Shown one piece after another: positions 40,636-62,180 of a DNA stretch of 64,000 nt (position 1 is its first letter; each line of letters begins with the position of its first letter). The stretch spans positions 10,858-74,857 of the forward strand of contig JBFGCA010000005.1 in the NCBI GenBank assembly GCA_041567315.1, in the 5' to 3' direction. Both the position numbers and the translations under genes were made by a program. Below the pieces are notes generated by a model. The model saw nothing but the letters and a program-made list of their open reading frames with translations. It ran no database searches and had not been told where the DNA came from. Source of the DNA: Thermoanaerobaculia bacterium. GTDB taxonomy: Bacteria; Acidobacteriota; Thermoanaerobaculia; Multivoradales; JAHEKO01.

Positions 40636-40768
40636 GGCGCCGGTTGCCGCGCCGGCCTTCGGGCCGGTCGTCGGGCCGCCTGCCCACCCGGGTGGCGGCC
40701 GCCCACCCCGCCGGGTCTGGCAGTGAGGCGCCGCCGCGCCCAGACTCGGCGCAACAAGGGAACACGCC

Positions 40769-43682: not shown

Positions 43683-43685
43683 GCG

Positions 43686-45161
43686 GTGTGGCGGCTGTTC
43701 ACCGAGCTGTTCCTCGCCCTGGCGGCGGCCGGCCTGCTGGGCGCCGCCGTCGGCTGGTTCCTGGCCCGGGCCCGCGAGTCCGATCGCATGGGAGGAATGG
43801 CCGCCGGCTACCGCAAGGAGCTCGACGAGCGCGTCGGTGAGGTCAAGGAGCGGCTGGAGACCGCCCGCGCCACCCTCCGCGAGCAGCAGCTCGACCTCGA
43901 CGAGGGCGCCGAGAAGCTGGCGCGCGCCCTGTCCCGGCGCGAGGAGGCGCTCTCCGAGAGGGACGCCGCCGTCGAGCGGACGAAGCTCCTCGATCGGGAG
44001 CTGGCGGGCCGGCGCGACGAGCTGTCCGCCGGTCGCGACCAGCTCGCCGAGGCCGGTCGAGAGCTCGAAAGCCTGCGCCGCCGGCTGGAGGAGAGCGAGG
44101 CGGGGCGCGGGCGGCTGGAGGAGGAGCTGGCCGAGCGCGAGCGGCTTCTCGGCGAGGCGGCGACCGACCTGGAGCGGGCCGGCGCCACCGTCGAGGAGCA
44201 GGGCAAGAGGCTGGCCGAGCTGGACGACCGGCTGGCCGGCCTCCTGGAGCGGCTCGACGAGGCCGACGGTCAGCTCGAGCAGCGCCGGGCCCGCGTCGCC
44301 GCTCTCGAGGCCGAGCTGGCCGAATCCGGCGCCCGCGCCGGGGAGCTCGAGACCGAGCTGGCCGCCGGCGCCGCACGGATCGAGGAGCTCGAGCAGCGGG
44401 GGCGCGAAGCGGCGGCGGCCGGCCAGGCGCTCGAGCGCCAGCTCGAGGACCGGCAGCAGCGGCTGGCCGACCTGGGGGGCGAGCTGGCCGAGCGCGACCG
44501 GAAGCTGCGGGCGGCCGGCGAGGACGGGGCGCGGGCGGCGGCGCGGGTCGAAGAGCTGGAGCGGCGGCTGGCGGCGGCGGGCGGCGAGAAGGAGACGCTG
44601 GACGCCGAGCTGACGGCGGCCCGGGGGCAGGTGGCCGAGGCCGAGCAGCGGCTGGCCCAGGCCGGCGAGGAGCTCGAGCGCAGCCGCGGGGAGGTCGAGG
44701 CCGCGGCCGGCCGGATGGCGGCCCTGGAGGAGGACCAGGCACGCCTGCATGGGAAGCTCGAACAGGCCGGCGCCGCCCACGCCGAGCTCGAGCAGCGTCT
44801 GGAGCGCGAGCTGGCGGCGGCGCAGGAGCGCGAGGGGCGGCTGGGCGAGCAGCTCGAAGAGGCGCGGGCGCGCGCCGCCGAGGCCGAGCGGGCGGTGACC
44901 GACGACCAGGGCGAGCGGCAGCGGCTCGCCGAGGCGCTCGACGCCGCGCGCGACCGGCGCCGTGACGAGCGGGCCGAGCTCGAGCGCGAGCTGGGGGCGC
45001 GGCGCGCGGAGCTCGAGGCGGCGGCGGCGCGCATCGCCGAGCTGGAGGCACGGGTCGAGCAGCTCGAGGGCCAGACCGGGCCGCCGCGCGACCTGGTCCA
45101 GGACGACGATCCCCGGTTTCTGACCATCAAGGCGTCCTCCGGCCGCGAAACGGGCGATTGA
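43686..45161 (+). CDS. Membrane-anchored long coiled-coil protein (Ala/Glu/Arg/Leu-rich)
   Basis: GTG start 3 nt after the OmpA gene stop. N-terminal TM helix (LFTELFLALAAAGLLGAAVGWFLA) followed by ~440 aa of heptad-like ELxxRxxELE repeats. No enzymatic motifs found. Confidence 0.55.
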   Translation: MWRLFTELFLALAAAGLLGAAVGWFLARARESDRMGGMAAGYRKELDERVGEVKERLETARATLREQQLDLDEGAEKLARALSRREEALSERDAAVERTKLLDRELAGRRDELSAGRDQLAEAGRELESLRRRLEESEAGRGRLEEELAERERLLGEAATDLERAGATVEEQGKRLAELDDRLAGLLERLDEADGQLEQRRARVAALEAELAESGARAGELETELAAGAARIEELEQRGREAAAAGQALERQLEDRQQRLADLGGELAERDRKLRAAGEDGARAAARVEELERRLAAAGGEKETLDAELTAARGQVAEAEQRLAQAGEELERSRGEVEAAAGRMAALEEDQARLHGKLEQAGAAHAELEQRLERELAAAQEREGRLGEQLEEARARAAEAERAVTDDQGERQRLAEALDAARDRRRDERAELERELGARRAELEAAAARIAELEARVEQLEGQTGPPRDLVQDDDPRFLTIKASSGRETGD

Positions 45162-45586: not shown

Positions 45587-45718
45587 AGCGCCGCGGCGCG
45601 GGGTGTCCATCCTCCGGGCGCCGCCGGCACCAGCGGGTGCGGACCGTCCGGACCCCGACCACCGTCCGCTAACATCGCCCGCCATGGAGCGGGTCGGGTC
45701 CGGGCCGGGCGACGGCCG

Positions 45719-46528
45719 ATGAGTCGCGCGCTCCGCGCGGCGGCGCGGCTGGTCGGGGTGGCGGCGGTCACCGTGTTCTGGTACTCGGCCTGGCTGGTCG
45801 GTGCCCTGACGGTGGCGCGCTCGCCGGTCCGGCGCGGGCGCTGGCGGCACCGCATCTTCCTGGGCTGGGGCCGCGCCATGGTCCGGGTGATGGCGGTCGA
45901 GGTCGAGGTCCGCGGCCGGCAGCCGGCGCCGCCCTTCTTTCTGGTCACCAACCACCTGAGCACCCTCGACGTGCCGGTGCTCGCCGCCCGCTTGGGGGCG
46001 GTCTTCGTCGCCAAGGCGGAGATGGCCGGGTGGCCGCTCTTCGGGGCGATGTGCCGCTCAGTGGGCACGGTGTTCATCGACCGCGGGCGGCGGCGCGACG
46101 TGGTGCGGGTGATGCCGGTGATCGAGGGCTTCCTGGATCGCGGCGAGGGGGTGGTGGTGTTCCCCGAGGGCACCAGCACCTCGGGCGAGGGCGTCGAGCC
46201 CTTCTATCCGCCCCTGCTCGAGGTGGCGGCGCGGCGGCCCTTTCCGGTCTCCTACGCGACGCTGAGCTATTCGACCCCGCCCGGCGAGTCGCCGGCCCGC
46301 GAGGCGGTCTGCTGGTGGGGCGACCTGCCCTTCGCCGAGCACATGTGGCGGGTGCTGCGGGTGCGGCGGATCCACGCCACGCTGGCCTTCGGCGCCGAGA
46401 GCGTCACCGCCGGCGACCGCAAGGAGCTGGCAGTGCGTCTGCAGCAGTCGGTGGCGGAGCAGTATCCGGGCCACGCCGTGGCGCCCCCGGCGCCGCGGGC
46501 GGTGGCCGGCCGGGCGGGCACACGGTGA
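45719..46528 (+). CDS. Lysophospholipid acyltransferase (1-acyl-sn-glycerol-3-phosphate acyltransferase, PlsC family)
   Basis: NHLSTLD (the HX4D variant of acyltransferase motif I), FVAKAEMAGWPLFG, VFPEGTST (motif III/FPEGT). Its stop overlaps the lgt GTG. Confidence 0.75.
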   Translation: MSRALRAAARLVGVAAVTVFWYSAWLVGALTVARSPVRRGRWRHRIFLGWGRAMVRVMAVEVEVRGRQPAPPFFLVTNHLSTLDVPVLAARLGAVFVAKAEMAGWPLFGAMCRSVGTVFIDRGRRRDVVRVMPVIEGFLDRGEGVVVFPEGTSTSGEGVEPFYPPLLEVAARRPFPVSYATLSYSTPPGESPAREAVCWWGDLPFAEHMWRVLRVRRIHATLAFGAESVTAGDRKELAVRLQQSVAEQYPGHAVAPPAPRAVAGRAGTR

Positions 46529-47943: not shown

Positions 47944-49563
47944 ATGAAAAAAGTGAAGATCGCCGACTGGTCGAAGCTCGAAGACCGCCGCCCGCGGCAT
48001 GCGCTGGTGGCCGGGGTGGACCTGGTGATCGTGCGCTGGGACGACCAGGTCTCGGTGCTCTACGGCCGCTGCCAGCACCGCGGAGCGCTGATGGCCGACG
48101 GCTCGATCCGCGGCGGCGACATCGTCTGCGGGGTCCACGACTGGGACTACCAGTTCCGCACCGGGATCAGCTCCTACAACCCCGAGGAGCGGCTCCACAA
48201 GTTTGGCGGTTGGGTCGAAGACGGCGCGGTGTGGGCCGACGAGGAGGAGATCGCCGCCTGGGAGCGCGAGAACCCGCAGCCCTGGGTCCGCGACGCCTAT
48301 CAGGGAACCTACCAGGACCACTCCAAGGGGTCGCCGGCCGAGCCCCACGTCAAGCTGATCCGCAAGCTGGCCGGCGAGGGGCTCGAAAAGGTGGGGCATC
48401 ACGGTCCGGTGGCGGCGATGGGGGTGCCACGCCAGGAGCTGCCGACCTGGGACGACCTGCAGTTCGTCACCGCCCAGCTCGCCCGGGTGCCGCAGCTCGA
48501 CGAGGTGCCGGTCGACACCCGGCTGGTGGTCGGCCCCGAGGCCGCCAAGCCGCTCGAGCTCGACCTCCCGATCATCGTCTCGGACATGAGCTTCGGGTCG
48601 CTCTCCTTCGAGGCCAAGGTGGCGCTCGCCAAGGGCGCCGAGCTGGCCGGCACCGGCATCTGCTCGGGCGAGGGCGGCATGTTGCCCGACGAGCAGGAGG
48701 CCAACCGCCGCTACTTCTACGAGCTGGCCTCGGCGCGCTTCGGTTTCTCGATGGAGAAGCTCGACAAGGTCCAGGCTTTTCACTTCAAGGGCGGCCAGGG
48801 CTCCAAGACCGGCACCGGCGGCCACCTGCCGGGGAGCAAGGTACGGGGCCGGATCGCCCAGGTGCGCGGTCTCGAGGAGGGCAAGCCGGCGGTCTCCCCG
48901 GCCCGCTTCCCGGAGTGGGAGGACGAGGACGGCTTCCGCCACTTCGCCGACGAGGTGCGGGAGCGGACCGGCGGCATCCCGATCGGCTTCAAGCTCTCGG
49001 CCCAGCACGTCGAGGACGACATCGACGCGGCGCTGAGGGTCGGGGTCGACTACCTGATCCTCGACGGCCGCGGCGGCGGCACGGGGGCGGCGCCGCTGCT
49101 CTTCCGCGACAATATTTCAGTGCCGACGCTGCCGGCCCTCGCCCGCGCCCGCCGCCATCTCGACCGCCGCCACCAGAGCGGCCGGGTGACGCTGTTCGTG
49201 ACCGGCGGGCTGCGCACCCCGGCCGACTTCGCCAAGGCGCTGGCGCTGGGTGCCGACGGCGTGGCGGTGGCCAACTCGGCGATGCAGGCGATCGGCTGTA
49301 TCGCGATGCGCGCCTGCCACACCAACAAGTGTCCGGTGGGGATCGCCACCCAGGACGAGACGCTGCGCCGGCGGCTGCCGGTGGACGAAGCGGCCGAACG
49401 GCTGGCCCGCTTTTTCGGCGCCTCGGTGGAGCTGATGAAGCTGCTGGCCCGCGCCTGTGGCCACACCCGGCTGGCCGACCTGCGCCGCGAGGACCTGACC
49501 ACCTGGAAGCGCGACGTGGCCTATCTGACCGGGGTGGCCTACGGCGGCGTGGTGCCGCTGTAG
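47944..49563 (+). CDS. Rieske [2Fe-2S] domain fused to a glutamate-synthase-like FMN/Fe-S domain (GltS FMN-binding domain family)
   Basis: ATG. N-terminal Rieske motifs CQHRGALMADGSI...CGVHDWDY (CxH...CxxH). C-terminal region matches the GltB domain-2 type (SDMSFGSLSFEAKVALAKGAELAGTGICSGEGG, GGQGSKTGTGGHLPG, LILDGRGGGTGAAP, CHTNKCPVGIATQDE). Confidence 0.7.
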   Translation: MKKVKIADWSKLEDRRPRHALVAGVDLVIVRWDDQVSVLYGRCQHRGALMADGSIRGGDIVCGVHDWDYQFRTGISSYNPEERLHKFGGWVEDGAVWADEEEIAAWERENPQPWVRDAYQGTYQDHSKGSPAEPHVKLIRKLAGEGLEKVGHHGPVAAMGVPRQELPTWDDLQFVTAQLARVPQLDEVPVDTRLVVGPEAAKPLELDLPIIVSDMSFGSLSFEAKVALAKGAELAGTGICSGEGGMLPDEQEANRRYFYELASARFGFSMEKLDKVQAFHFKGGQGSKTGTGGHLPGSKVRGRIAQVRGLEEGKPAVSPARFPEWEDEDGFRHFADEVRERTGGIPIGFKLSAQHVEDDIDAALRVGVDYLILDGRGGGTGAAPLLFRDNISVPTLPALARARRHLDRRHQSGRVTLFVTGGLRTPADFAKALALGADGVAVANSAMQAIGCIAMRACHTNKCPVGIATQDETLRRRLPVDEAAERLARFFGASVELMKLLARACGHTRLADLRREDLTTWKRDVAYLTGVAYGGVVPL

Positions 49564-50477
49564 GCCGCCGGCCGCGCGCCCTCCTCCTCGAGCGCCGCAC
49601 GGAGCGCCGCCGCGGTGCGCTCGAGGTTGGCCAGCCAGTCGCGGGCCAGCGGATCGAGGGTGACCAGCCGGGCACCGACCTGGCGGGCGATCGCCGCGGC
49701 GCCGGGCCGGGGGAAGCCGGGCTGGACGAACAGTGTTTTCAGGCGCCGCCGGCGCGCCTCCTCGACCAGCGCCACCAGCCGCGCCGGGCCGGGCTCCTTG
49801 CCCTCGTGCTCGATCGCCACCTGCTCCAGCCCGTAGCGGCGCGCGAAGTGGCCCCAGGCCGGATGGAAGACCACGAAGCTGCGGCCCGCGAAGCCGGCGA
49901 GGGCGGCGCCGATCCTCGCCTCGGCGGCCTCGACGTCGGTCAAGAAGGCGGCCAGCCGGCGCTGGTACTCGCCGGCGCGCCCGGGATCGATCGCCGCCAG
50001 CGCGGCCGCCAGCCGCTGGGCCGCGCCGGTCATCGCCGGCGGCGCCATCCACAGGTGCGGATCGTCGCCGCCGGCGCCGGGGAGCCCGATCTCGCGCGCC
50101 ACGGCGAGGAGATCGATCACCACCAGCTCCGGGCTCTGCGCCGCGATCCGCTCGAGGTGGGTGCGCTCGAAGGCGAGCGCCGGATGGCCCACCCGCAGGT
50201 AGGCCCGGGCGGTGGCCAGCGCCACCAGCCGGCGCGGCGAGGGCTCGTAGGTCTCGGGGCTGAAGCCGGCGGGGACCATCACCACCAGCTCGACCCGCTC
50301 GCCACCGATCCGCTCCACCGGCTCGGCCAGCGGCGGCACGCTGACCGCCACCCGGAGCGGCGGCTGCTCGGCCCGTATCGGTGGCGCCGCTGGCAGCAGC
50401 GGAAGCATGAGCAGCGCCAGGCCCAGGGTGCCCCAGGGTGCCCGCGCTTTGCGCGGCGCCCGGCCGGACGGCGTCAC
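49539..50477 (-). CDS. Metal (Zn/Mn) ABC transporter substrate-binding protein (ZnuA/TroA family)
   Basis: GTG start at 50477 in frame, overlapping the permease gene stop (GTGA). Signal peptide MTPSGRAPRKARAPWGTLGLALLMLPLLPAAPP. TroA-fold segments (RVAVSVPPLAEPVERIGGERVEL, DPHLWMAP, FVVFHPAWGHFARRYGL, LKTLFVQPGF). Convergently overlaps the Rieske-GltS gene end by 25 nt. Confidence 0.7.
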   Translation of the reverse strand: MTPSGRAPRKARAPWGTLGLALLMLPLLPAAPPIRAEQPPLRVAVSVPPLAEPVERIGGERVELVVMVPAGFSPETYEPSPRRLVALATARAYLRVGHPALAFERTHLERIAAQSPELVVIDLLAVAREIGLPGAGGDDPHLWMAPPAMTGAAQRLAAALAAIDPGRAGEYQRRLAAFLTDVEAAEARIGAALAGFAGRSFVVFHPAWGHFARRYGLEQVAIEHEGKEPGPARLVALVEEARRRRLKTLFVQPGFPRPGAAAIARQVGARLVTLDPLARDWLANLERTAAALRAALEEEGARPAAYSGTTPP

Positions 50478-51340
50478 GGCGGCTCCGGCACGCTGGCCTG
50501 CGCGCCGCCGCGACGCGCTCGCGCGCGGCGCAGCGCCAGGGCGCGGCCTCCGCGCACGAAGATCAGCAGCAGGGCGCCCAGCAGCACGATGCAGGGACCG
50601 GAGGGCAGGTCGAGGAGGTAGGACAGCCAGATCCCGCCCAGCGACACCACCGCTCCGATCACGGTCGAGAGCGCCATCACCCCGGCCAGCGAGCGGCTGA
50701 GCGCCAGCGCCGCCACCGGCGGGATGGTCAGCAGCGCCAGCACCAGGAGGATCCCGACCAGCCGCAGCAGCAGCACCACGGCCAGCGCCACCAGCACCAG
50801 CAGCAGATTCCGGAAGGCCCCCACCGGCACGCCCTGCACGCGGGCGTACTCCTCGTCGAAGCCCACCGCCACCAGCTCCTTGAAGAACAGCACCAGCAGC
50901 GCCATGACGACGGCGGTGAAGCCCAGGGTCCACACCACGCCGCTGCGCTCGACGGTGAGGATGTTGCCGAACAGATAGGAGGCGAGGTCGGGACCGTAGC
51001 CCGGGGTGCGGGCGATGAACACCATGCCCACCGCCATGCCCACCGCCCACAGGATGCCGATCACCGCGTCCTCCGACCGCGACCGCCGGTCGCCGGTGCC
51101 GGCCAGGGCCAGCGCCGCCACCACGGCGACGGCGGCGGCTCCCAGCAGCGGCTCGACCCCCAGGAAGTAGCAGACGCCGAGCCCGCCGAAGGCCGCGTGG
51201 CTCAAGCCGCCGCTGATGAACACCAGCCGCTTGACGACCACCAGCGTGCCGAGCACCCCGCACAGCACGCTGGCCAGCAGCGCCGCCCACACCGCGTTGC
51301 GCAGGAAGTCGTAGGACAGCAGGTCGACGAGAGCGTCCAC
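50474..51340 (-). CDS. Metal ABC transporter permease (ZnuB/TroCD family)
   Basis: GTG start. ~8 TM helices, typical ABC-3 permease composition. Confidence 0.7.
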   Translation of the reverse strand: MDALVDLLSYDFLRNAVWAALLASVLCGVLGTLVVVKRLVFISGGLSHAAFGGLGVCYFLGVEPLLGAAAVAVVAALALAGTGDRRSRSEDAVIGILWAVGMAVGMVFIARTPGYGPDLASYLFGNILTVERSGVVWTLGFTAVVMALLVLFFKELVAVGFDEEYARVQGVPVGAFRNLLLVLVALAVVLLLRLVGILLVLALLTIPPVAALALSRSLAGVMALSTVIGAVVSLGGIWLSYLLDLPSGPCIVLLGALLLIFVRGGRALALRRARARRGGAQASVPEPP

Positions 51341-51423
51341 GGCGCCGGGTCTCGGTTGAGGAGCTGCGACTGCGGCTTCGAGTATGCCCTTCGAGGGTGG
51401 CCGAGCGGGTGCGCGGCGGCCGG

Positions 51424-52230
51424 CTAGGGCGGGGCCGGCCCACCGCCGCCGGGACCGCCCCCGGGGTGGCGGTGCTCGCCCAGCACCCGGTGCGGCACCC
51501 CGCCGTGGGTGACCAGCTCCACCGGGCAGCCGTAGACCTGCTCCAGCATCTCGGCGGTGACCTCACCCCGCGGGTGATAGTGCAGCCGCCGGTTGACGCA
51601 CGCCACCTGCTTCATCAGCCCGCCGAAGAGGGTCACGTCGTGGGTCACCACCACTACCGGCGCCCGCCGGTTGAGCTCGGCGAGGAGCGACAGCACCACC
51701 TCCCGCGACTCGCTGTCGATCGAGCCCATCGGCTCGTCGAGCAGCAGGATGCGGGGATCGGCGACCAGCGCCCGGGCGATCAGGGTGCGCTGGAGCTGCC
51801 CCCCGGACAGATCGGCGAGCGGCACCCGGGCGAGGGCGGCGAGCCCCAGCCGCTCGAGCCAGCGCCCGACCGCCAGCTCGTCCTCGCGGGCGTAGCTGCG
51901 CAGCAGTCCGCGGCCGCCCAGCCGCCCGGTGCGCACCGCCTCGAACACCGAGATCGGGAACGAGCGGTCGAAGCCCGCGAACTGCGGCACGTAGCCCACC
52001 GCCCCGGCCCGCCGGTCGAAGCTCCAGCCGACGCTCCCCGACCGCGGCTCGAGCAGACCGAGCAGCACCTTGAGCAGCGTCGTCTTGCCGCCGCCGTTGG
52101 GGCCGATCACCGCCAGGAAGTCGCGCTCGCCGATCTCCAGCGAGACCCGATCGAGCACCACCTCCGGCCCGTAGCCGAAGGTCACCTCGCGGACGCTGAC
52201 TAGCGGATTCGTTGCGGATGGTGACGGCAC
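51424..52230 (-). CDS. Metal ABC transporter ATP-binding protein (ZnuC-like)
   Basis: GTG start (track). Walker A GPNGGGKTT, ABC signature LSGGQLQR, Walker B ILLLDEP. Confidence 0.75.
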   Translation of the reverse strand: MPSPSATNPLVSVREVTFGYGPEVVLDRVSLEIGERDFLAVIGPNGGGKTTLLKVLLGLLEPRSGSVGWSFDRRAGAVGYVPQFAGFDRSFPISVFEAVRTGRLGGRGLLRSYAREDELAVGRWLERLGLAALARVPLADLSGGQLQRTLIARALVADPRILLLDEPMGSIDSESREVVLSLLAELNRRAPVVVVTHDVTLFGGLMKQVACVNRRLHYHPRGEVTAEMLEQVYGCPVELVTHGGVPHRVLGEHRHPGGGPGGGGPAPP

Positions 52231-52480
52231 GGCGGCGAGCCGATGATAGCCCGCACTAATGCTTCATGTTCGATTGCTGCGGCTGTGGAGCCGCAGAGCA
52301 GCGCCGGCGCTGCGCACCTCGAGCGGGGCCATCCGACGACGGCGAGAAGCCAGAATGCCGTTAAGCTCGGGGCCGGGAAGCCAAGCGAGCTCACGAGGGG
52401 AAGCCCAGGCGAGTGACGGACCGTCGACGGGCGGTCACTCGCCCGCCGGCGTCACCCGAGTCTTTAGGAGCGATTCAATA

Positions 52481-54490
52481 ATGTCCGACAACAATCCCCA
52501 AAAGGCGAGCGGCGGCAACGGCGGCGGGCGGCCCGCGCGGCGGGTGTGGCGCAAGGCGCTCGAGCCCGGCGAGTTGCCCGAGGGCCGGGTCAAGCCCGTC
52601 ACCTGCGAACGGGTGACGGTGTGCATGACCCACTTCGAGGGCCGCTACGCGGCGCTCGACAACAAGTGCCCCCACCAGGGCGGGCCGCTGGGCGAGGGCT
52701 CGATCGAGAACGGGCTGCTGCGCTGTCCGTGGCACGGCTGGGACTTCGACCCGCTGACCGGCAAGGCGCCGGGCTACGACGACGGGGTGGCCACCTACCC
52801 GGTCGAGGAGCGCGAGGACGGCGTCTGGGTGGGCTTCGACGAGGAGGCGCTCCACGTCCGCACGGTCTCCGACCTGATGGCCGAGACCATGGCCGCCTGG
52901 GGGGTGCGCCACGTCTGGGGGATGGTGGGTCACTCCAATCTCGGGCTGGCCGACGCCCTGCGGCGGCTCGAGGCCGACGGGCGGCTGGCCTACTACGGCA
53001 TCCGCCACGAGGGCGCCGCGGCCTTCGCCGCCTCGGCCTACGGCAAGCTCACCGGCCGGCCGGCGGCCTGCCTGTCGATCGCCGGTCCCGGCGCCACCAA
53101 CCTGCTCACCGGGCTGTGGGACGCCAACGTCGACCGCTCGCCGGTGCTGGCGCTGACCGGCCAGGTGGACACCCAGGTGCTGGGCCCCGGCGCCTTCCAG
53201 GAGGTCGACCTGTCGGCCGCCTTCGGCAGGGTGGCGCGCTGGAGCCAGCCGGTGCTCCACACCTCGCGCCACGCCGAGCTGGTCAACCTGGCGCTCAAGA
53301 GCGCCATCCTCGAGCGCGGCGTCGCCCACCTGATCTTCCCCGACGAGGTGCAGAAGCTGCCGGCCCCGGAGGGCGCCAAGCCCGGCGGACCCGAGGGGCG
53401 GGTGACGGCGCGCGAGATCGCGCCGCCGGCCGGGGCGCTGGAGCGGGCGGCGGCGCTGCTCGCCCGCTCGCGGCGGCCGGGGATCATCGTCGGCCACGGC
53501 GCCCGCTTCCACATGGAGCCGGTGCTCGAGCTGGCCGAGCGGCTGCGCTGCCCGGTGCTCACCACCTTCAAGGGCAAGGGGCTGGTCTCCGACCGCCACC
53601 CGCTGGGCTGCGGCGTCCTGGGCCGCAGCGGCACGCCGATCGCCAGCTACTTCATGAACGAGTCCGACTGTCTGCTGGTGTTCGGCGCCAGTTTCTCCGA
53701 CCACACCGGGATCACCCCCAAGAAGCCCACCATCCAGGTGGACTGGGACCCGATGACGCTCGGCAAGTTCCACCAGGTCGAGGTGCCGGTGTGGGGCGAG
53801 ATCGGGGTCACCGCCCGGCTGCTGGCGGCGGCCCTCGACGGCGGCGGTGCGGCGGTCGACCGGCGCGACGAGATCGCCGAGCGCTGGGCGATCTGGCGCC
53901 GTGAGAAGGAGCGCCGCGAGGGCGAGGAGCGCGGCCGCGGCATCTCCTCGGCCGCCCTCTTCGCCGCCCTCAACCGGGCGGTGCCCGAGGACGCCATCCT
54001 CGCCGTCGACGTCGGCAACAACACCTACTCCTTCGGCCGCTACTTCGAGTGCGCCCGCCAGGCGGTGCTGATGTCCGGCTACCTGGGCTCGATCGGCTTC
54101 GGCTACCCGGCGGCGATGGGGGCCTGGGCGGCGACCCGCGAAGAAGACCCGCGCTTCGCCGGCCGCCCGGTGCTCTCGATCTCGGGCGACGGCGGCTTCG
54201 GCCAGTACATGGGCGAGCTGACCACCGCCGTCAAGTACGGGATGAAGATCACCCACGTGCTGCTCAACAACGGCGAGCTGGGCAAGATCTCCAAGGAGCA
54301 GCGCTCGGGCAACTGGGAGGTCTGGCAGACCTCGCTCCACAACCCCGACTTCGCCGCCTACGCCGAGCTGTGCGGCGCCCTCGGTCTCCGGGTCCGCCAC
54401 CGCGACGAGCTGGACGCCGCCCTCGGCCGCGCCCTCGCCCACGACGGCCCCAGCCTGGTCGAAGTCCTCACCGACCCCGAGCTGGTCTGA
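52481..54490 (+). CDS. Rieske [2Fe-2S] domain fused to a thiamine-pyrophosphate-dependent enzyme (acetolactate synthase/pyruvate oxidase family)
   Basis: ATG at 52481 with taggag 10 nt upstream. N-terminal Rieske CPHQGGPL...CPWHGWDF. Then the three-domain TPP fold: Pyr domain (GMVGHSNLGLADAL, SIAGPGATNLLTGLWDANVD), middle domain, PP domain with GSIGFGYPAAMGA and the TPP-binding GDGGFGQYMGELTTAVKYGMKITHVLLNNGELG motif (GDG...NN). Confidence 0.7.
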   Translation: MSDNNPQKASGGNGGGRPARRVWRKALEPGELPEGRVKPVTCERVTVCMTHFEGRYAALDNKCPHQGGPLGEGSIENGLLRCPWHGWDFDPLTGKAPGYDDGVATYPVEEREDGVWVGFDEEALHVRTVSDLMAETMAAWGVRHVWGMVGHSNLGLADALRRLEADGRLAYYGIRHEGAAAFAASAYGKLTGRPAACLSIAGPGATNLLTGLWDANVDRSPVLALTGQVDTQVLGPGAFQEVDLSAAFGRVARWSQPVLHTSRHAELVNLALKSAILERGVAHLIFPDEVQKLPAPEGAKPGGPEGRVTAREIAPPAGALERAAALLARSRRPGIIVGHGARFHMEPVLELAERLRCPVLTTFKGKGLVSDRHPLGCGVLGRSGTPIASYFMNESDCLLVFGASFSDHTGITPKKPTIQVDWDPMTLGKFHQVEVPVWGEIGVTARLLAAALDGGGAAVDRRDEIAERWAIWRREKERREGEERGRGISSAALFAALNRAVPEDAILAVDVGNNTYSFGRYFECARQAVLMSGYLGSIGFGYPAAMGAWAATREEDPRFAGRPVLSISGDGGFGQYMGELTTAVKYGMKITHVLLNNGELGKISKEQRSGNWEVWQTSLHNPDFAAYAELCGALGLRVRHRDELDAALGRALAHDGPSLVEVLTDPELV

Positions 54491-54497
54491 GCCGGGG

Positions 54498-55803
<1,306 letters not shown>

Positions 55804-55814
<11 letters not shown>

Positions 55815-57204
55815 CGCCTGCCCCGGCCTGCTCGGCCGTCGCGCGGCCCACGGCGAACAGATGATGCCGCCCGCGGACGAGCATCAGGCCGCCGCCGCGC
55901 GTCCCGGCGAGCGCCGGCGTCGCCATCAGGCGCTCGCCCATCGGGTAGGTGGCCAGGAGCCTGAACTCGGGTCCGGCCGCGACGACGAAGACCTCGCCGT
56001 CCTCGCTGGGCAGGTAGATCCGGCCGTCGGCGGCGACCGGCGAAGCCGAGAAGCCCGCCCCGCGGTGCGAGATCCGCTCGTAGTAGGCCTCCTCGCCGGT
56101 CCGCAGCCGGTAGCAGCCCAGCACCCCGTTGTTGGCGCAGACGTACAGGTAGTCGCCGTAGATGAGCGGCGTCGGCATGTAGGAGCCGCGGCCTTCGCTC
56201 CGCCACAGGACGAAGCTGCTCGAGGTCGCCCCCTCCGGCAGGGTGATGTCGCCGCGCGCGCCGCGCCGCAGGACGAAGAGCGGTTTCTCGGGTCGCCGGC
56301 CGCTGGCCACGACGATCAACTCGCCGCTGTAGACCGGGGTCGGGGCGGTGATCTTGGAGCTGCCGCCCAGCCGCCACAGCTCGCGGCCCGAGGCCGGGTC
56401 GTAGCCGCGGATGAAGTTGGCGCCGTTGGTCACCAGCTCGGGCCGCTCGGGGTGCGGGTAGATGGTGGGCGTCCCCCACGACGGCAGCTCGTCGCGCCCG
56501 GTCCGCCAGACGGTCTCGCCGGTCGCCGCGTCGAGCGCGATCAGGAAGTCCTCGCCCTGGGTGTCGCACTGCAGGATGACCATCCCGTTCCACAGGATCG
56601 GCGAGCTGGCGGACCCCCACTCGTAGTCCGGCACGTCGTAGGCGCCGGCGTCGAGCCGCCCGAGGTCGCGGTGCCAGAGCCGGTCGCCGTCGACCGAGTA
56701 GCCGAACACCCCCTCGGAGCCGAAGAAGGCGACCACCACCCGGCCGTCGGTGGCCGGCGTCGAGTTGGCGTAGGTCGCCTTGATGTGGCGCTTGTCGCGC
56801 GGCACCCCGCGGTGGGCCTCGCGCTCCCAGACCACCCGGCCGGTGGCGAGGTCGAGCGCCAGCAGCAGCCAGCGCTGCTCCGAGCGGTCGGCCGAGGCGG
56901 TGCCCTCGCCGTAGAGCCCCTCCTTGAAATCGGCGTCGGCGCGCGAGCTGACCGCGGTGGTCACGAACACCCGATCGCCCCACACCACCGGGCTCGAGTG
57001 GGCGAGCCCGGGGATCGGCGTCTTCCAGCGGACGTTCTCGCCCGTCGTCCCGTCCCAGCGCTCGGGCAGGTCCAGCCCGTCGGCCACCCCCGAGGCGCCG
57101 GGGCCGCGGAACGATGGCCAGTCGGCGGCCAGCGCCGGCCACGCCATGGCGGCGACGAGGAGCGCCAGCCAGGCGAAGCGAGGGGTCGGGGATCGTCGGA
57201 ACAT
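55804..57204 (-). CDS. PQQ-like beta-propeller repeat protein (outer-membrane-assembly BamB-like fold), secreted
   Basis: ATG at 57204 (arithmetic). Signal peptide [27 protein letters not shown]. Repeated W/G-containing blades ([30 protein letters not shown], ...). Confidence 0.7.
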
Positions 57205-57344
57205 GGGAAGGCGCCGGCCGTGCTGAATCGCGCATTCTACCCGGCCCTCTGGGCGGGTTAGCCTCGTCGGCCAAGAGCCGGGGACGGAGCGCAGCGGTGA
57301 TCGGCGCGGTCCCCGGGGGCCCCGGGGGCTGTCCGCCCAGCGCA

Positions 57345-58334
57345 ATGTTCCTTCTCGGAGAACTACTGCTGCTCTTCCTGGCGCCGCCGCCGGTCTGCGG
57401 CACCGACCCGGGTGAGGCCGAGCGGCGGGCGCTGCTGGCCGAGGCCAACCGGCTGCGGGTCGTCGAGGGCCTGCTGCCGGTGCGGCCCCACCCGGCTCTC
57501 TGTCAGGTGGCCCGCGACCGTGCCCTCGAGGTCGCTGCCAGCGGCGAGCTGGAGCCCAGCGTGTCGGCCCTCCAGGCCCTCACCCGCGCCGTCTACCGCC
57601 AGGGCTACCGGCCCCACGCCTGGCGCGAGAGCAGTCTGTTGACCGAGGCGAGTGCCGGCGAGGCGAAGGCCGTCGACCGGGATGCCGACGACGGGGATGC
57701 CGACGACGGGCGCGTCGCCGGCCGGGGAGCCGACCGCTGGCCAGCTCGCAGCCGGGGCCCCGCGCTTCTGGGGCGCTGGCTGGTGGTCCAGCCCTCGCTG
57801 CGCGAGCTGCTGCTGGGCGACTTCGAGGACGCGGGCGTCGCCTTCGTCAGCGCCGGGGGCGGCGCCGCCGCAAGCCTGGTGGTGGGCCTTCCCAAGCTCA
57901 CCTGGGAGCGCCGGCTGGCGGCGCCGCTGGCCGATCTGGAGGCGGTCCGCCGGGCGGCGCTGGCGGCGGCCAATGCACGCCGTCGCGCCGCCGGCCGCGG
58001 TCCGCTGCGGGCCGACCCGCGGCTCGACCGCGCGGCCCAGGCCCACGCCGAGGACATGGTCCGCCGCGGCTTCTACGCGCACCGCGGCCCGGAGGGGTCG
58101 AGCCCCCTGGTCCGTGCACGCCGCGCCGGCTACCGGGGCGTCGGAGCGGTGGGCGAGAACATCGCCAAGGGCCTGTTCACGCCCAAGGAGGCGGTGGAGC
58201 GCTGGATGAACAGCAGCGGCCACCGCCGCAACCTGCTGCGCCGCGGCGCCACCGCGACCGGCTTCGGGGTGGCGGTGGGCGACGACGGGCGCGAGGTCGA
58301 GGTGGTCTGGGTACAGCTCGTTGCCGGCGGCTAG
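57345..58334 (+). CDS. CAP domain (SCP/PR-1-like) secreted protein
   Basis: ATG at 57345 with a hydrophobic signal. C-terminal CAP domain motifs ([37 protein letters not shown]). Confidence 0.65.
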
Positions 58335-58350: not shown

Positions 58351-60257
58351 CCGTCGACTACACTTTCGGTCCGTTGGTGCCGCTTTCGCGCGTCGTTCCC
58401 ACCCTGGCCCTGGCGGCGATCTTCGCCGCCTGCGTCTCACCGGTCCGCATCAAGACGGTCGCCGCCCCCGAGGCGCCGGTCGCGCCGCCGCTCGGCGAGG
58501 GCCTGAGCGAGAGCTCGCTCCAGACCCTGCGTCTGCTGGGCCTCGAAGAGCGGCTGGAGTCCCACCCGGTCGAGGTGGTGGCGGTGCTCCACGGGCTGGG
58601 ACGCCACGGGCCGGACGGCGGCGGACTGGCCGTGGTCGAGGCCGAGATGCTGTCGCTGCTCGCCCACGCGACCGAGGGCCGCGACGCCGAGCGCGCCGCC
58701 GACCTCCACCTGCTGACCGTCGTCCGGGCGTGGGAGTTCCTGTTCGGGGGCCGGCCCGACGACCCGGCGCGGGCCTTCGACCCTCGCGTCCACCGGGCGC
58801 GCGAGCTGTACAACCACGCGCTGGGCTCCTACCTGCTGTATCTCAAGACGAGCGGCCGGGGCCTGGTCGGGCACGAGCGCGAGACGATGTTCGGGACCTA
58901 TCGGGTGCGGATCGCGGGCGGCGGAGAAGGCGTCGACCCGGCCTCCTGCGAGGACCTGCTGGTGTCGCGCGCCGTCGAGGTCCGCGGGCTCCGCAACCGC
59001 TACCGCCGCGACGGTCTGGGGGCGGCGCTGGTCACCTTCCGAGAGAACGCCGGCGGCGGCCCGCTGGACCGCTTCCTGCCGCCCGAGGGGATCGTCGGCG
59101 CCGCCACCGCGCTGCTCCGGGTCGAGCCGCGCTCCGGCCCCTCCGCCGAGCCCGTCGAGCTGACCCTGTCCTTCTACGACCCCCGCCGCGCCGAGACGGT
59201 CGAGCAGGGTGGCCTCGAGGTGCCGCTCGACGCCGACCTGACCACCCCCTTCGCCTACCTGGCGAGCCTCACCGACCACGGCCGGCTGGCTCTCCAGGGG
59301 CTGCTGGTGCCCGGCCGCGAGCCCCGCGAGGGCCTCTCCCTGCTCGAGCCCTACGACCCCGGGAAGATCCCGGTGGTCATGATCCACGGCCTGCGCTCGA
59401 GCCCGCTCGCCTGGATGGAGCTCACCAACGACCTGGCCGGCCACCCCGAGCTCGGGCGGCGCTACCAGATCTGGCACTACGCCTATCCCACCGGGCTGCC
59501 CTATCTGTTCTCGGGACTTACCCTGCGGCGGGCGCTCGAGGAGGTGCGCGCCGCGCTCGACCCCGAGGGCGACGACCCCGCCAGCGCCGGCATCGTGGTC
59601 GTGGCCCACAGCATGGGCGGGCTGCTGGCCCGCACCCTGATCTCGGACAGTGGCCTGACCCTCTGGAACGCCGCCTTCCGGGTGCCGCCCGGTGCGCTCG
59701 CCGGCTCGGCGGCGGACATCGCCTGGCTCGAGGAGATGTTCGTCTTCAAGCCGCTGCCCTTCGTCCGGCGGGTGGTCTTCATCTCGACCCCGCACCGCGG
59801 CAGCGCCACCGCCGAGGGGATCATCGGCCGGCTGAGCGCCAGCCTGGTCGAGCTGCCCGAGGAGGCGCTCCTCGACCGCGTCCGCCGCCTGCTCGAGCCC
59901 AATCGCGAAGCGGTCCAGCCCGATCTGCTCAAGATCCTGGAGAAGGGCCGGATGACCAGCATCCGGGCGCTGCGGCCGGACAGTCCGATCCTGGCGGCGC
60001 TGAACACCATTCCCATCGCCCGAGGCGTCCGCTACCACACCATCCTCGGCGACCGCGGCCGCGGCGACGCGGATCCGGTCTCCGACGGCTTCGTCACCCT
60101 GGAGAGCGCGCGGCTCGGCGGCGCTGCCTCCGAGCGCCTGGTCCCCTCGGGTCACGCCGCCTACGCCCACCCGGCGGCCATCTTCGAGATCCAGCGCATC
60201 CTCCGCGAGCACCTGGCGGAGATCGAGCTGGCGGGCTCTTCCGCCGCTCAGGAGTAG
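58347..60257 (+). CDS. Alpha/beta hydrolase lipoprotein (lipase/esterase-like, GxSxG nucleophile elbow)
   Basis: GTG start. Lipobox-like AAIFAAC. VVMIHGLRSSPLAW, VVAHSMGG (GxSxG), and a later His candidate. Confidence 0.65.
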   Translation: MAVDYTFGPLVPLSRVVPTLALAAIFAACVSPVRIKTVAAPEAPVAPPLGEGLSESSLQTLRLLGLEERLESHPVEVVAVLHGLGRHGPDGGGLAVVEAEMLSLLAHATEGRDAERAADLHLLTVVRAWEFLFGGRPDDPARAFDPRVHRARELYNHALGSYLLYLKTSGRGLVGHERETMFGTYRVRIAGGGEGVDPASCEDLLVSRAVEVRGLRNRYRRDGLGAALVTFRENAGGGPLDRFLPPEGIVGAATALLRVEPRSGPSAEPVELTLSFYDPRRAETVEQGGLEVPLDADLTTPFAYLASLTDHGRLALQGLLVPGREPREGLSLLEPYDPGKIPVVMIHGLRSSPLAWMELTNDLAGHPELGRRYQIWHYAYPTGLPYLFSGLTLRRALEEVRAALDPEGDDPASAGIVVVAHSMGGLLARTLISDSGLTLWNAAFRVPPGALAGSAADIAWLEEMFVFKPLPFVRRVVFISTPHRGSATAEGIIGRLSASLVELPEEALLDRVRRLLEPNREAVQPDLLKILEKGRMTSIRALRPDSPILAALNTIPIARGVRYHTILGDRGRGDADPVSDGFVTLESARLGGAASERLVPSGHAAYAHPAAIFEIQRILREHLAEIELAGSSAAQE

Positions 60258-61591
60258 GCGACGCCGCGGTGGGGCGGCAGGTAGAAGTCGGGCAGCAGGC
60301 GATCGACCCGCAGCAGGCCGGCCCGGGTCAACCGGATGGCGGCGCCGTCCACCGTCGCCCAGCCGCGGGCCGCCAGCCGGGCGAGCGGCGCGGCGAACGC
60401 CTCGGTCACGTCGACGCCGAACTTGGCGCCCAGCGCCCGCACGTCCACCTCGCCCAGCTTGAGCTGGAGCACCAGCTCGCGCACCAGCCGCTCTCGCGGC
60501 GACAGGGCGTAGGCGCGGCCCAGCGGCAGCCGGCCCGCCTCGAGGCTGTCGAGATAGCTGCCCAGCTCGGCCAGGTTCTGCTGGTGGATGCCGTCGAGGT
60601 AGGAGAAGGACGAGACCCCCACCCCCAGCAGATCGGCGCCCCGGTACTGCGCATCCTGGTAGGCGAACGGATGGCGGGCCGGGTCGCGCACCGCCGCGTA
60701 GCCGCTCCGCACCACGTAGCCGGCCGCCTCGAGCCGCGCGAAGCCGCCCTCCAGCCGGGCGCGCTTGGCCGACCAGTCGGGCAGCGGGGCGGTCAGCCGG
60801 CCGTTGCCCAGGGCGCGGAAGAGCGGCGTGTTGTGCGGGATCTCGAGCAGATAGATGGTCACGCACTCGGGCTCGAGCTCGAGGACCCGCCCGAGGCTGT
60901 CGAAGAACGACCGGTCGGTCTCGCCCAGGAGCCCGGCGATGAGATCGACGTTGACCACCGGGAAGCCGGTCCGGCGGATCGCCGTCCACGCCCGCTCGAC
61001 GTCGGCCACCCGGTGGATCCGCCGGTTGAGCTCCAGCACCCGGTCGTCGAGCTGCTGGACGCCGAGGCTGACCCGGGTCACGCCGTGCTCGCGGAGGACG
61101 GCGAGCTTGGCCGCGGTCACCGTCTTGGGCGCGCACTCGACGGTCACCTCCGAGGGCGCCCAGCACAGCCGGTGGCGGAGCCCGCCGAGCAGCCGGTCGA
61201 GCTGCGGCGCGGTCAGCATCGTGGGCGTGCCGCCGCCCACGTAGGCGAAGGTCACCGGCCGGGCGGCCAGCGCCGGCGCCGCGGCGTAGAGCTCGATCTC
61301 ACGGAGCATCGCCTCCAGGTAGCGGTCGATCTCCGCGCCGCGGTCGTCGTAGCACAGGTAGTAGCAGTAGTCGCAGCGCTTGACGCAGAACGGCACGTGG
61401 ACGTAGAGCCCGAGCCCCAGCTCGCCGGCCGCGCCGGGGGCCTCCTCGAGCCGCCCGCGGAACGCCGGCACCGCCTCCGCCCGCCAGCACGAGAACGGCG
61501 GATAGGCCGAGACGAAGTAGCTGCCGACCGGCGGCTCGGGCTCGTCGGGCAGGACCTCGAGCTTGCGCGACGATGCCGTTCCTCGAGCCAT
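60248..61591 (-). CDS. Radical SAM protein, HemN/HemW-like (coproporphyrinogen III oxidase family; heme chaperone HemW or a class C radical-SAM enzyme)
   Basis: Start MARGTASS... (in frame at ~61591; my line-count coordinates are 1 nt off here). CxxxCxxC in LYVHVPFCVKRCDYCYY; GGGTPTML; HemN_C-like C-terminal domain. 447 aa. Confidence 0.7.
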   Translation of the reverse strand: MARGTASSRKLEVLPDEPEPPVGSYFVSAYPPFSCWRAEAVPAFRGRLEEAPGAAGELGLGLYVHVPFCVKRCDYCYYLCYDDRGAEIDRYLEAMLREIELYAAAPALAARPVTFAYVGGGTPTMLTAPQLDRLLGGLRHRLCWAPSEVTVECAPKTVTAAKLAVLREHGVTRVSLGVQQLDDRVLELNRRIHRVADVERAWTAIRRTGFPVVNVDLIAGLLGETDRSFFDSLGRVLELEPECVTIYLLEIPHNTPLFRALGNGRLTAPLPDWSAKRARLEGGFARLEAAGYVVRSGYAAVRDPARHPFAYQDAQYRGADLLGVGVSSFSYLDGIHQQNLAELGSYLDSLEAGRLPLGRAYALSPRERLVRELVLQLKLGEVDVRALGAKFGVDVTEAFAAPLARLAARGWATVDGAAIRLTRAGLLRVDRLLPDFYLPPHRGVAYS

Positions 61592-61704
61592 CGGTCCCGC
61601 CCCGACCGGCCCGGCCTCTCGCCTGCCGAGGCGCGGCGCGGAGGCGATCGACGGTAGCAGCCGCGGGGCAGCCGGCGCGCCGCCCGTTGGGGCGGGATTG
61701 CCTA

Positions 61705-61734
61705 TTGAAGCGGGCCGGCACCGGGCGTATAGTC
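61705..61734 (+). promoter_or_regulatory. Near-consensus sigma70-type promoter TTGAAG-N17-TATAGT flanked by a GGGGCGG / CCGCCGCCCC inverted repeat, ~30 nt upstream of the small ORF
   Basis: Sequence ttggggcgggattgccTATTGAAGcgggccggcaccgggcgTATAGTccgccgccccatgagataAGGAGGaaccaaccATG. The -35 and -10 are separated by exactly 17 nt. The strongest promoter-like sequence seen in the window. Confidence 0.55.
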
Positions 61735-61765
61735 CGCCGCCCCATGAGATAAGGAGGAACCAACC

Positions 61766-62053
61766 ATGGGACACAGAAGCCTGGTGACCAAGATCGGCGC
61801 GCTCCAGCTCAACACGGCGGGGCTGCTCTCGCTGTTGGGCGGAGACGAGGAAGACCGGAACCGCTTCCTGGAGATCTACCGGGGGATCACGACCCCGGCC
61901 CAGTGGCGGGTCATCGAGAACTTCTTCGAGTCCATGAACGCGGAGGTCGAGGGCCTGCAGCGCAACCTCAAGGCCCTCAACGGTCTGGCCAAGGACATCA
62001 AGACCCCGACGGCGGCCCCGGTCGCCAAGCCGGCGCTGCGGGCGGCCAAGTAG
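61766..62053 (+). CDS. Small hypothetical protein (95 aa) with a consensus promoter and strong Shine-Dalgarno, immediately upstream of a YcaO gene; candidate RiPP precursor or accessory protein
   Basis: ATG 6 nt after AAGGAGG. MGHRSLVTKIGALQLNTAGLLSLLGGDEEDRNRFLEIYRGITTPAQWRVIENFFESMNAEVEGLQRNLKALNGLAKDIKTPTAAPVAKPALRAAK. No recognised domain. Confidence 0.55.
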   Translation: MGHRSLVTKIGALQLNTAGLLSLLGGDEEDRNRFLEIYRGITTPAQWRVIENFFESMNAEVEGLQRNLKALNGLAKDIKTPTAAPVAKPALRAAK

Positions 62054-62180
62054 TCCGGGCCTTCCGGCACCGCAACTGAGTCGACAGTCCGCAAGACCCG
62101 CGAGGGAGCGCCGGGTGCAGCCAGCGAGCCGCGCCCGGCGCTCCCCCGGCGGCATCTCCGGTGCTCTCCTCATCCTCGGC

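Follow-up and report, generated by a model that had tools for sequence, protein, structure and literature searches.

Enzymes of the pyruvate oxidase family are known to pass their electrons to O2 or to a membrane quinone. Lactobacillus POX (EC 1.2.3.3) hands them to O2, whereas E. coli PoxB, which shares EC 1.2.5.1 with C. glutamicum PQO, delivers them to a membrane quinone via a C-terminal tail that is a lipid-binding, auto-inhibitory element. In the 2-oxoacid:ferredoxin oxidoreductases (PFOR/OFOR), oxidative decarboxylation at thiamine diphosphate (ThDP) is combined with an iron-sulfur (Fe-S) exit in the same enzyme, and electrons pass directly from ThDP to the Fe-S center; PFOR contains [4Fe-4S] clusters, uses coenzyme A and is typically oxygen-sensitive. 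In this study, we analyzed a gene in a 64,000-nt stretch of a Thermoanaerobaculia genome (contig JBFGCA010000005.1; hereafter, the window) that encodes a Rieske [2Fe-2S] domain fused to the N-terminus of a ThDP enzyme of the acetolactate synthase/pyruvate oxidase (ALS/POX) superfamily. A sequence-only reading of the same DNA had singled out this fusion. Our comparative analysis makes it somewhat better than an even chance that the Rieske domain serves as the electron exit of an oxidative 2-oxo-acid decarboxylase.

Architecture and conservation of the fusion

The fusion gene and its parts are located in the window as follows.

52481..54490, + strand: coding sequence of the Rieske-TPP fusion (669 aa plus stop), from the open reading frame (ORF) table, with Pfam Rieske and TPP_N/M/C matches and a 100% identical database protein (P0001)
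52466..52470, + strand: Shine-Dalgarno-like AGGAG, 10 nt before the ATG at 52481, read directly from the sequence
52538..52840, + strand: Rieske [2Fe-2S] ferredoxin-like domain, residues 20-120 (Pfam PF00355, E = 1.4e-14)
52667-52669 (C63), 52673-52675 (H65), 52724-52726 (C82) and 52733-52735 (H85), + strand: codons of the Rieske ligands, in a CXH-X16-CXXH pattern
52862..53215, + strand: ThDP pyrimidine-binding (Pyr, TPP_enzyme_N) domain with Glu177 in RHEGAA, aligned with RHEE of E. coli PoxB (EcPoxB) (Pfam PF02776, E = 5e-33)
53438..53818, + strand: central nucleotide-binding domain (TPP_enzyme_M; Pfam PF00205, E = 1.9e-32), the flavin adenine dinucleotide (FAD) domain in POX/PoxB and a putative FAD-binding domain here
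54008..54466, + strand: ThDP diphosphate-binding (PP, TPP_enzyme_C) domain (Pfam PF02775, E = 4.9e-34)
54185-54271, + strand: GDG-X24-NN motif, residues 569-597, from alignments

The stop-to-stop frame that holds the gene starts at 52259 and remains open to 54490 on the + strand with no interruption. Its 74 in-frame codons upstream of the ATG at 52481 fall in a 250-bp divergent intergenic region before a znuC-like gene. We took this ATG as the right start because the AGGAG lies 10 nt before it and because fusion homologues are 646-673 aa long, with alignments to the window protein that begin at about residue 20.

Pfam places the domains in the order Rieske (residues 23-96), TPP_enzyme_N (128-245), TPP_enzyme_M (320-446) and TPP_enzyme_C (510-662), all four matches being far over the gathering cut-offs, and the linker between the Rieske and TPP parts is 7 residues long. 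This confirms what had been read from the letters: both Rieske ligating motifs are intact (C63-P-H65 ... C82-P-W-H85), and the TPP part has its three domains and the GDG-X24-NN motif. In an alignment of 26 homologues (58-80% identity), the ligands C63, H65, C82 and H85 are invariant, as are Glu177, GDGG569-572 and Asn597, whose counterparts are aligned in EcPoxB; Asn596 is at least 90% conserved in a 25-sequence alignment. The Rieske domain is as constrained as the catalytic domains, with invariant columns making up 32% of the Rieske, 30% of the Pyr, 28% of the middle and 34% of the PP domain. The variable regions of the protein are the linker and the N-terminal tail.

We compared the isolated Rieske module with known structures. 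The best PDB matches were the NDO ferredoxin 2qpz (E = 6.4e-10, residues 3-90 of 105) and T4moC (3e-9), and BphF, CarAc and TodB were also matched; most of the module can be aligned with these soluble Rieske ferredoxins, which belong to oxygenase systems. In the alignment of homologues, the module lacks the disulfide cysteines and the Ser after the second His that mark high-potential, bc1-type Rieske proteins, which is suggestive, though only that, of a low-potential cluster (about -150 mV). NDO ferredoxin, T4moC, BphF and CarAc resemble the module in size (about 100 residues) and in the CXH-X16-CXXH pattern, and we propose for it the same role, that of an electron shuttle from a flavoprotein to the Rieske center of a terminal enzyme. 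Rieske ferredoxins are free-standing proteins of about 105-115 aa; in contrast, 79 of the 81 loci encode the module described here joined to the TPP enzyme. The proposed system would also differ from the three-component oxygenase systems in two respects. Its ferredoxin is covalently joined to a ThDP "reductase", where those systems use an NAD(P)H-dependent one, and its terminal enzyme would be a glutamate-synthase-like (GltS-like) flavin mononucleotide (FMN)/Fe-S protein rather than a non-heme-iron oxygenase.

Sequence comparison places the TPP core closest to the flavoenzyme pyruvate oxidases. Among NCBIfam models, pyruvate oxidase PRK08611 ranked first with 372 bits, followed by the ubiquinone-dependent pyruvate dehydrogenase PoxB (PRK09124, 303), PRK08273 (300) and PRK06457 (288), while lower scores were obtained for PRK08322 (272), TIGR00118 (270; acetohydroxyacid synthase, AHAS), TIGR02720 (261) and the FAD-free AlsS (216 bits). 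None of the curated cut-offs was reached, either among pyruvate oxidases (742 for PRK08611, 792 for PRK09124 and 638 for TIGR02720) or among acetohydroxyacid/acetolactate synthases (538 for TIGR00118, 509 for PRK08322 and 510 for AlsS). In the PDB, the best sequence match was EcPoxB (3ey9/3eya, E = 1e-70, about 29-30% identity), and the next best were the ThDP-dependent HKA synthases BbmA and CsmA. An AF2 monomer model (pLDDT 79, pTM 0.74) gave as its top Foldseek match 3eya, a C-terminally shortened EcPoxB chain, with a TM-score of 0.89 over the target and a root-mean-square deviation of 3.3 Å. Neither the sequence nor the Foldseek search found a PDB entry that spans the Rieske and TPP parts together.

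The fusion shares with PoxB, PQO and POX the Pyr/middle/PP fold, the catalytic Glu, the GDG-X24-NN motif and an FQE active-site loop. It differs from them in the added N-terminal Rieske domain, in a Lys (Lys602) at the position of EcPoxB Phe465, in scores of about half the curated cut-offs, and in its predicted electron acceptor, which would be its own Fe-S domain instead of a quinone or O2. It also lacks the C-terminal tail of about 45 residues, an element that in this enzyme class measures 35-55 residues and serves as a membrane anchor or lid. The fusion protein terminates 7 residues past TPP_C, and the POX/PoxB profiles matched it only to about position 530 of 574-576; in a common alignment, 15 residues follow window residue 655, compared with 44-57 in POX/PoxB/PQO-type representatives. 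The likeness to PFOR/OFOR is one of function only, with homology limited to the generic ThDP fold: the fusion combines a POX scaffold with a [2Fe-2S] Rieske domain, and no POR/PFOR Pfam domain was detected in it at E values up to 0.01.

Conservation of the middle domain, together with the higher ranking of flavoenzyme families over FAD-free AlsS, gives indirect evidence for FAD in this domain, which we regard as probable. Pyruvate is the default guess for the substrate; an identity of about 30% to characterized enzymes leaves the substrate unfixed, and 2-oxoglutarate would be an alternative.

Distribution and relatives with other iron-sulfur modules

To place the fusion among its relatives, we searched a database of 5.8 billion protein sequences and took the best 120 proteins, and we scanned genomes at one per species. 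At least 582 genome stretches encode a relative; the best 80 loci were analyzed, making 81 with the window. Each of the 120 best proteins carries PF00355 and the three TPP domains, at 74-81% identity to the window protein. All of the best 80 loci encode both parts in one frame, covering the query from about residues 1-25 through 669 at 66-81% identity. A frameshift or a split gene, which the sequence-only reading had named as what would undo its claim, was thus not found in the window, where the ORF is continuous, nor in the 120 best proteins, which are all single-frame, and the frame is intact in 79 of the 81 loci.

The two remaining loci each contain a single in-frame stop. In L031, a TGA at 8337-8339 coincides with the Rieske/TPP linker (IYV*LEEE), and TTG comes directly after it; in L022, a stop near position 1221 lies inside TPP_N. 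Both are probably sequencing errors or pseudogenes, and the stop in L031 could also mark a naturally split version.

According to record titles, the carriers belong to Acidobacteriota/Thermoanaerobaculia, Gemmatimonadota/Longimicrobiales, Myxococcota, Candidatus Poribacteria, Nitrospirales, Planctomycetota, Gammaproteobacteria (Thiodiazotropha symbionts and Woeseiaceae), Calditrichia, Rhodothermales and Trueperaceae. Most are uncultured bacteria, largely marine or sponge-associated by record names, and the family is common in sediment, sponge and bivalve-symbiont genomes. One carrier, Engelhardtia mirabilis Pla133 (Planctomycetota), is cultured; its gene lies at about 632,222-634,273 of NZ_CP036287. 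A similarity this close between phyla suggests that the family is strongly constrained, spreads horizontally, or both. In the E. mirabilis copy (L073:8001-10052), about 40 extra residues with a high content of Gly, Ser, Ala and Asp extend the linker that joins the middle domain to the PP domain (alignment columns 460-500); none of the other aligned copies has them.

The fusion had been described as not being a standard annotated architecture. In support of this, no curated family model or solved structure covering the whole fusion was found, and a full-text literature search, most subscription journals being outside its reach, returned no paper on a Rieske- or rubredoxin-fused POX-family enzyme or on a Rieske-GltS protein. 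On the other hand, the family is large, and its members already carry generic pipeline labels, such as "thiamine pyrophosphate-binding protein", "pyruvate oxidase" and "ALS large subunit-like/nitrite reductase...". The domains and the chemistry are known ones, while the electron-exit design and the multi-Rieske gene cluster described below appear to be undescribed.

We further searched 1.84 billion cluster representatives (50% identity) with HMMER, followed by Pfam scans. At this level, the whole fused family amounts to about four clusters. Next in closeness to the TPP core (37-49% identity) are P0127, P0134, P0135, P0145, P0154 and P0247, which carry an N-terminal rubredoxin instead of the Rieske domain. 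These uncharacterized POX-like enzymes share with the fusion the N-terminal position of a one-electron carrier and the short C-terminus, and differ in the carrier itself, a FeCys4 rubredoxin as opposed to a Rieske [2Fe-2S] domain. In one protein of the Rieske clade, P0121 (873 aa; L082:8001-10622), the TPP core is preceded by CDGSH, Fer4_19 (single [4Fe-4S]), CDGSH and Rieske domains, which gives this POX-like enzyme a chain of four clusters. No GltS-like neighbor of P0121 was found on its 16-kb contig.

In a neighbor-joining tree of the trimmed core, the Rieske clade was sister to the rubredoxin-fused P0127 and P0134. A second rubredoxin-fused group was mixed with enzymes that carry no fusion, and PoxB/PQO and POX formed clades elsewhere in the tree. 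The long C-terminal tail is missing in all Rieske- and rubredoxin-fused proteins, which end 13-23 residues past window residue 655, and the best NCBIfam model of every Fe-S-fused protein was "pyruvate oxidase", below threshold. The occurrence of different one-electron carriers at the same N-terminal position, together with the loss of the quinone/membrane element, points to the N-terminal module as an electron port. This combination is the strongest, though indirect, support for an electron-transfer role of the Rieske domain.

The linked Rieske-GltS gene and the proposed electron route

A second Rieske-fusion gene, which the sequence-only reading had missed, lies 2.9 kb upstream of the fusion gene in the window.

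47944..49563, + strand: partner gene, a Rieske plus glutamate-synthase-like FMN/[3Fe-4S] protein of 539 aa (Pfam Rieske 1.6e-11, Glu_synthase 1.9e-90)
49539..52230, - strand: znuCBA-like metal ABC transporter operon (Pfam ABC_tran, ABC-3 and ZnuA), between the two Rieske-fusion genes

The znuCBA-like operon stands outside the Rieske system and explains the 2.9 kb gap, which is peculiar to the window. It runs divergently upstream of the fusion gene, which is monocistronic here. We identified recurrent neighbors by clustering the ORFs of the 81 loci, followed by HMM searches. The partner gene was found near the fusion gene in 39 of the 81 loci; of the 40 loci flanked by 7 kb or more on each side, 18 have it. 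The two genes were at most 1.2 kb apart in 37 of these 39 loci, and 37 of the 39 pairs share a strand. Across phyla, their order varies (G-T, T-G, G-D-T, T-G-D and T-D-G, where G is the GltS-like gene, T the TPP fusion and D a DUF5996-like gene).

The partner is as conserved and widespread as the fusion, with 77-85% identity among its best 120 matches and hundreds of proteins named "glutamate synthase-related". A Cx5Cx4C motif is aligned with the [3Fe-4S] site of GltS, and a Lys and an Arg 20 residues apart are aligned with GltS residues that we take to form its 2-oxoglutarate site. The Rieske domain of the partner matches the Rieske domain of an oxygenase subunit (KshA) about as well as the ferredoxin T4moC in the PDB. 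In 30 of the 81 loci (e.g., L006:9951-10826 and L031:7043-7924), a gene between or beside both Rieske-fusion genes encodes a DUF5996-like protein of about 300 aa, whose match to DUF5996 is weak; the protein has no NCBIfam or PDB match, and the window contains no copy.

A third Rieske fusion, of about 360 aa, joins a Ferric_reduct (PF01794) membrane domain, a heme b-binding type, to a C-terminal Rieske domain. It was found in 12 of about 160 loci (L073:10907-12019, from E. mirabilis Pla133, and L044, L066, L071, L075, L091, L094, L095, L096, L102, L133 and L141), and no copy is present in the window. Its Rieske domain and that of the TPP fusion are both ferredoxin-like and 40% identical, compared with about 25% between the GltS-like Rieske domain and either of them.

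In 8 metagenome loci (L104, L107-L111, L113 and L133), a gamma-glutamyltranspeptidase gene adjoins the Rieske-GltS-like gene, in most cases on the other strand, which may hint at glutamate-related metabolism.

We propose that the fusion is soluble and belongs, as a ThDP enzyme that probably contains a flavin, to the pyruvate-oxidase branch of the ALS/POX superfamily. Its ThDP site would decarboxylate a small 2-oxo acid to the hydroxyalkyl-ThDP enamine, whose two electrons would pass first to a flavin in the middle domain, should there be one, and then one by one to the fused Rieske cluster, instead of being handed to O2 or to a membrane quinone. An outward flow of electrons from the 2-oxo acid is expected because the 2-oxo-acid/acyl couple is, by textbook thermodynamics, far more reducing than any Rieske center. 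The fusion would thus act as a "reductase-ferredoxin" that draws its electrons from a 2-oxo acid and not from NAD(P)H. The intramolecular electron transfer suggested in the sequence-only reading has gained comparative backing from module swaps, tail loss, conservation and the linked Rieske enzyme, while FAD, pyruvate and the direction of flow keep the status of predictions.

The most likely acceptor is the co-encoded Rieske-GltS-like protein, a claim that we hold less firmly than that of the electron exit itself. Its Rieske cluster would receive electrons from that of the fusion, and with its [3Fe-4S] cluster and FMN it would reduce an imine or a 2-oxo-acid-derived substrate at the FMN. In some genomes, the membrane Ferric_reduct-Rieske protein may join the same network. 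On a broader view, which we offer with considerable doubt, the Rieske-TPP, Rieske-GltS and DUF5996-like proteins, with or without the Ferric_reduct-Rieske protein, might form an undescribed "Rieske-wired" module, apparently spreading horizontally in uncultured, largely marine bacteria, that couples 2-oxo-acid oxidation directly to FMN-dependent reduction or, alternatively, wires both reactions to the membrane. If true, this could allow, for example, a pyruvate-driven reductive amination of 2-oxoglutarate, that is, a glutamate synthase independent of NAD(P)H and soluble ferredoxin.

A clade that traded the membrane tail for built-in Fe-S carriers would represent a third electron exit for the POX family, and would link the chemistry of POX with that of PFOR on a protein framework that operates in air in its known members. 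Because identity across phyla reaches 66-81% and the genes are common in sediment, sponge and bivalve-symbiont genomes, the fusion and its equally conserved Rieske-FMN partner may be an unrecognized piece of carbon/nitrogen metabolism in uncultured bacteria. The existence of a cultured carrier, E. mirabilis Pla133, makes the hypothesis directly testable.

Several observations weigh against this proposal. Lys602, in the motif LGKIS, occupies the position of EcPoxB Phe465 (LGFV) and is at least 90% conserved in the family; P0127 and P0134 share it. As EcPoxB Phe465 and its counterpart LpPOX Phe479 presumably lie between the two cofactors, ThDP and flavin, electrons may take another internal path here than in POX. 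Linkage to the partner is asymmetric and incomplete. Neither a GltS-like nor a DUF5996-like gene was found nearby in 16 of the 40 loci whose flanks reach 7 kb or more, and among 24 partner-centered metagenome loci with flanks of at least 3 kb, only 8 had a TPP fusion nearby. In the window itself, the two Rieske-fusion genes are separated by an opposite-strand operon. The rubredoxin-fused relatives had no GltS-like neighbor on the few contigs inspected (four), which were short or uninformative.

The same gene cluster could be read as two consecutive dehydrogenases. The Rieske-GltS protein would oxidize an amino acid, glutamate-like, to a 2-oxo acid, which the Rieske-TPP enzyme would decarboxylate oxidatively (e.g., 2-oxoglutarate to succinate), and both Rieske exits would feed the Ferric_reduct-Rieske protein or a different acceptor in respiration. 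What a GltS-type FMN site produces (a 2-imino or 2-oxo acid) is indeed of the class that POX-type enzymes use as substrate, and the aligned Lys and Arg of the partner fit such a site. ALS/POX-superfamily enzymes that use 2-oxoglutarate also exist, for example MenD and the cyanobacterial 2-oxoglutarate decarboxylase. Both soluble enzymes carry the same kind of module, and the Ferric_reduct-Rieske membrane protein occurs in the same cluster, including that of E. mirabilis. We nevertheless consider this unlikely. The membrane protein is confined to 12 of about 160 loci, which do not include the window, GltS FMN domains normally run reductively, and the Rieske domain of the GltS fusion is of another subtype (25% versus 40% identity), a better fit to a donor-acceptor pair than to parallel donors. 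It is less probable still that the route is flavin-free, with the Rieske domain taking single electrons directly from the hydroxyalkyl-ThDP enamine/radical, as in PFOR, and the middle domain left as a structural or nucleotide-binding remnant. The direct ThDP-to-Fe-S transfer of 2-oxoacid:ferredoxin oxidoreductases is a precedent, and the replacement of Phe465 by Lys602 would agree with it, but the middle domain is conserved like the catalytic domains, the best curated families are all flavoenzymes (372 bits, versus 216 for AlsS), and the Rieske domain is located at the far N-terminus and not inserted near the active site.

We give the same slim chance to a ThDP carboligase or lyase without redox catalysis, akin to AHAS, Xsc or glyoxylate carboligase, whose Rieske domain would act as a redox/oxygen sensor or keep a structural flavin reduced. 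Several FAD-containing members of the superfamily catalyze no net redox reaction, HKA synthases stand second in the PDB, and the position of the fusion under every curated cut-off means that homology does not fix its chemistry. Against it, three electron-carrier types (Rieske, rubredoxin and the CDGSH/4Fe-4S chain) have been fused independently to the same clade, which argues for bulk electron transfer; the loss of the PoxB/POX tail and the linkage to other Rieske-fused redox proteins also speak against this explanation. That the fusion is an artefact of frameshift, mis-assembly or two genes read as one is next to inconceivable. The in-frame stops in L031 and L022 could be taken that way, but the frame is whole in the window, in all other loci from many phyla and in every one of the best proteins, and a 7-residue linker joins a Rieske domain constrained like the rest of the protein.

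Other features of the window

Downstream of the fusion gene, two genes run in the opposite direction and probably form one operon convergent on it.

54498-55814, - strand: class I/II aminotransferase, convergent and ending 7 nt downstream of the fusion gene; its best NCBIfam match is GntC-like, far under the cut-off
55804-57345, - strand: PQQ-like beta-propeller protein, with an 11-nt overlap with the aminotransferase gene

Neither gene was accepted as a member of the Rieske system, since they are not recurrent neighbors in related loci. M48 peptidase, molybdopterin oxidoreductase, PPK2 and HemB neighbors seen in other loci were likewise rejected as lineage-specific synteny, judged from the sequences alone. 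PlsC-type acyltransferases (8 + 6 loci, including the window at 45587-46528) and Na+/H+ exchangers (6 loci) were too sporadic. No Rfam family reached its gathering score anywhere in the 64-kb window, and neither a sigma-70-like promoter nor a convincing terminator was found around the fusion gene. The window also contains the following genes.

40727-42370, + strand: GNAT acetyltransferase fused to a cyclic-nucleotide-binding domain
43683-45161, + strand: 492-aa coiled-coil protein, after an OmpA/BON protein
60248-62173, - strand: 641-aa HemN-like radical SAM protein

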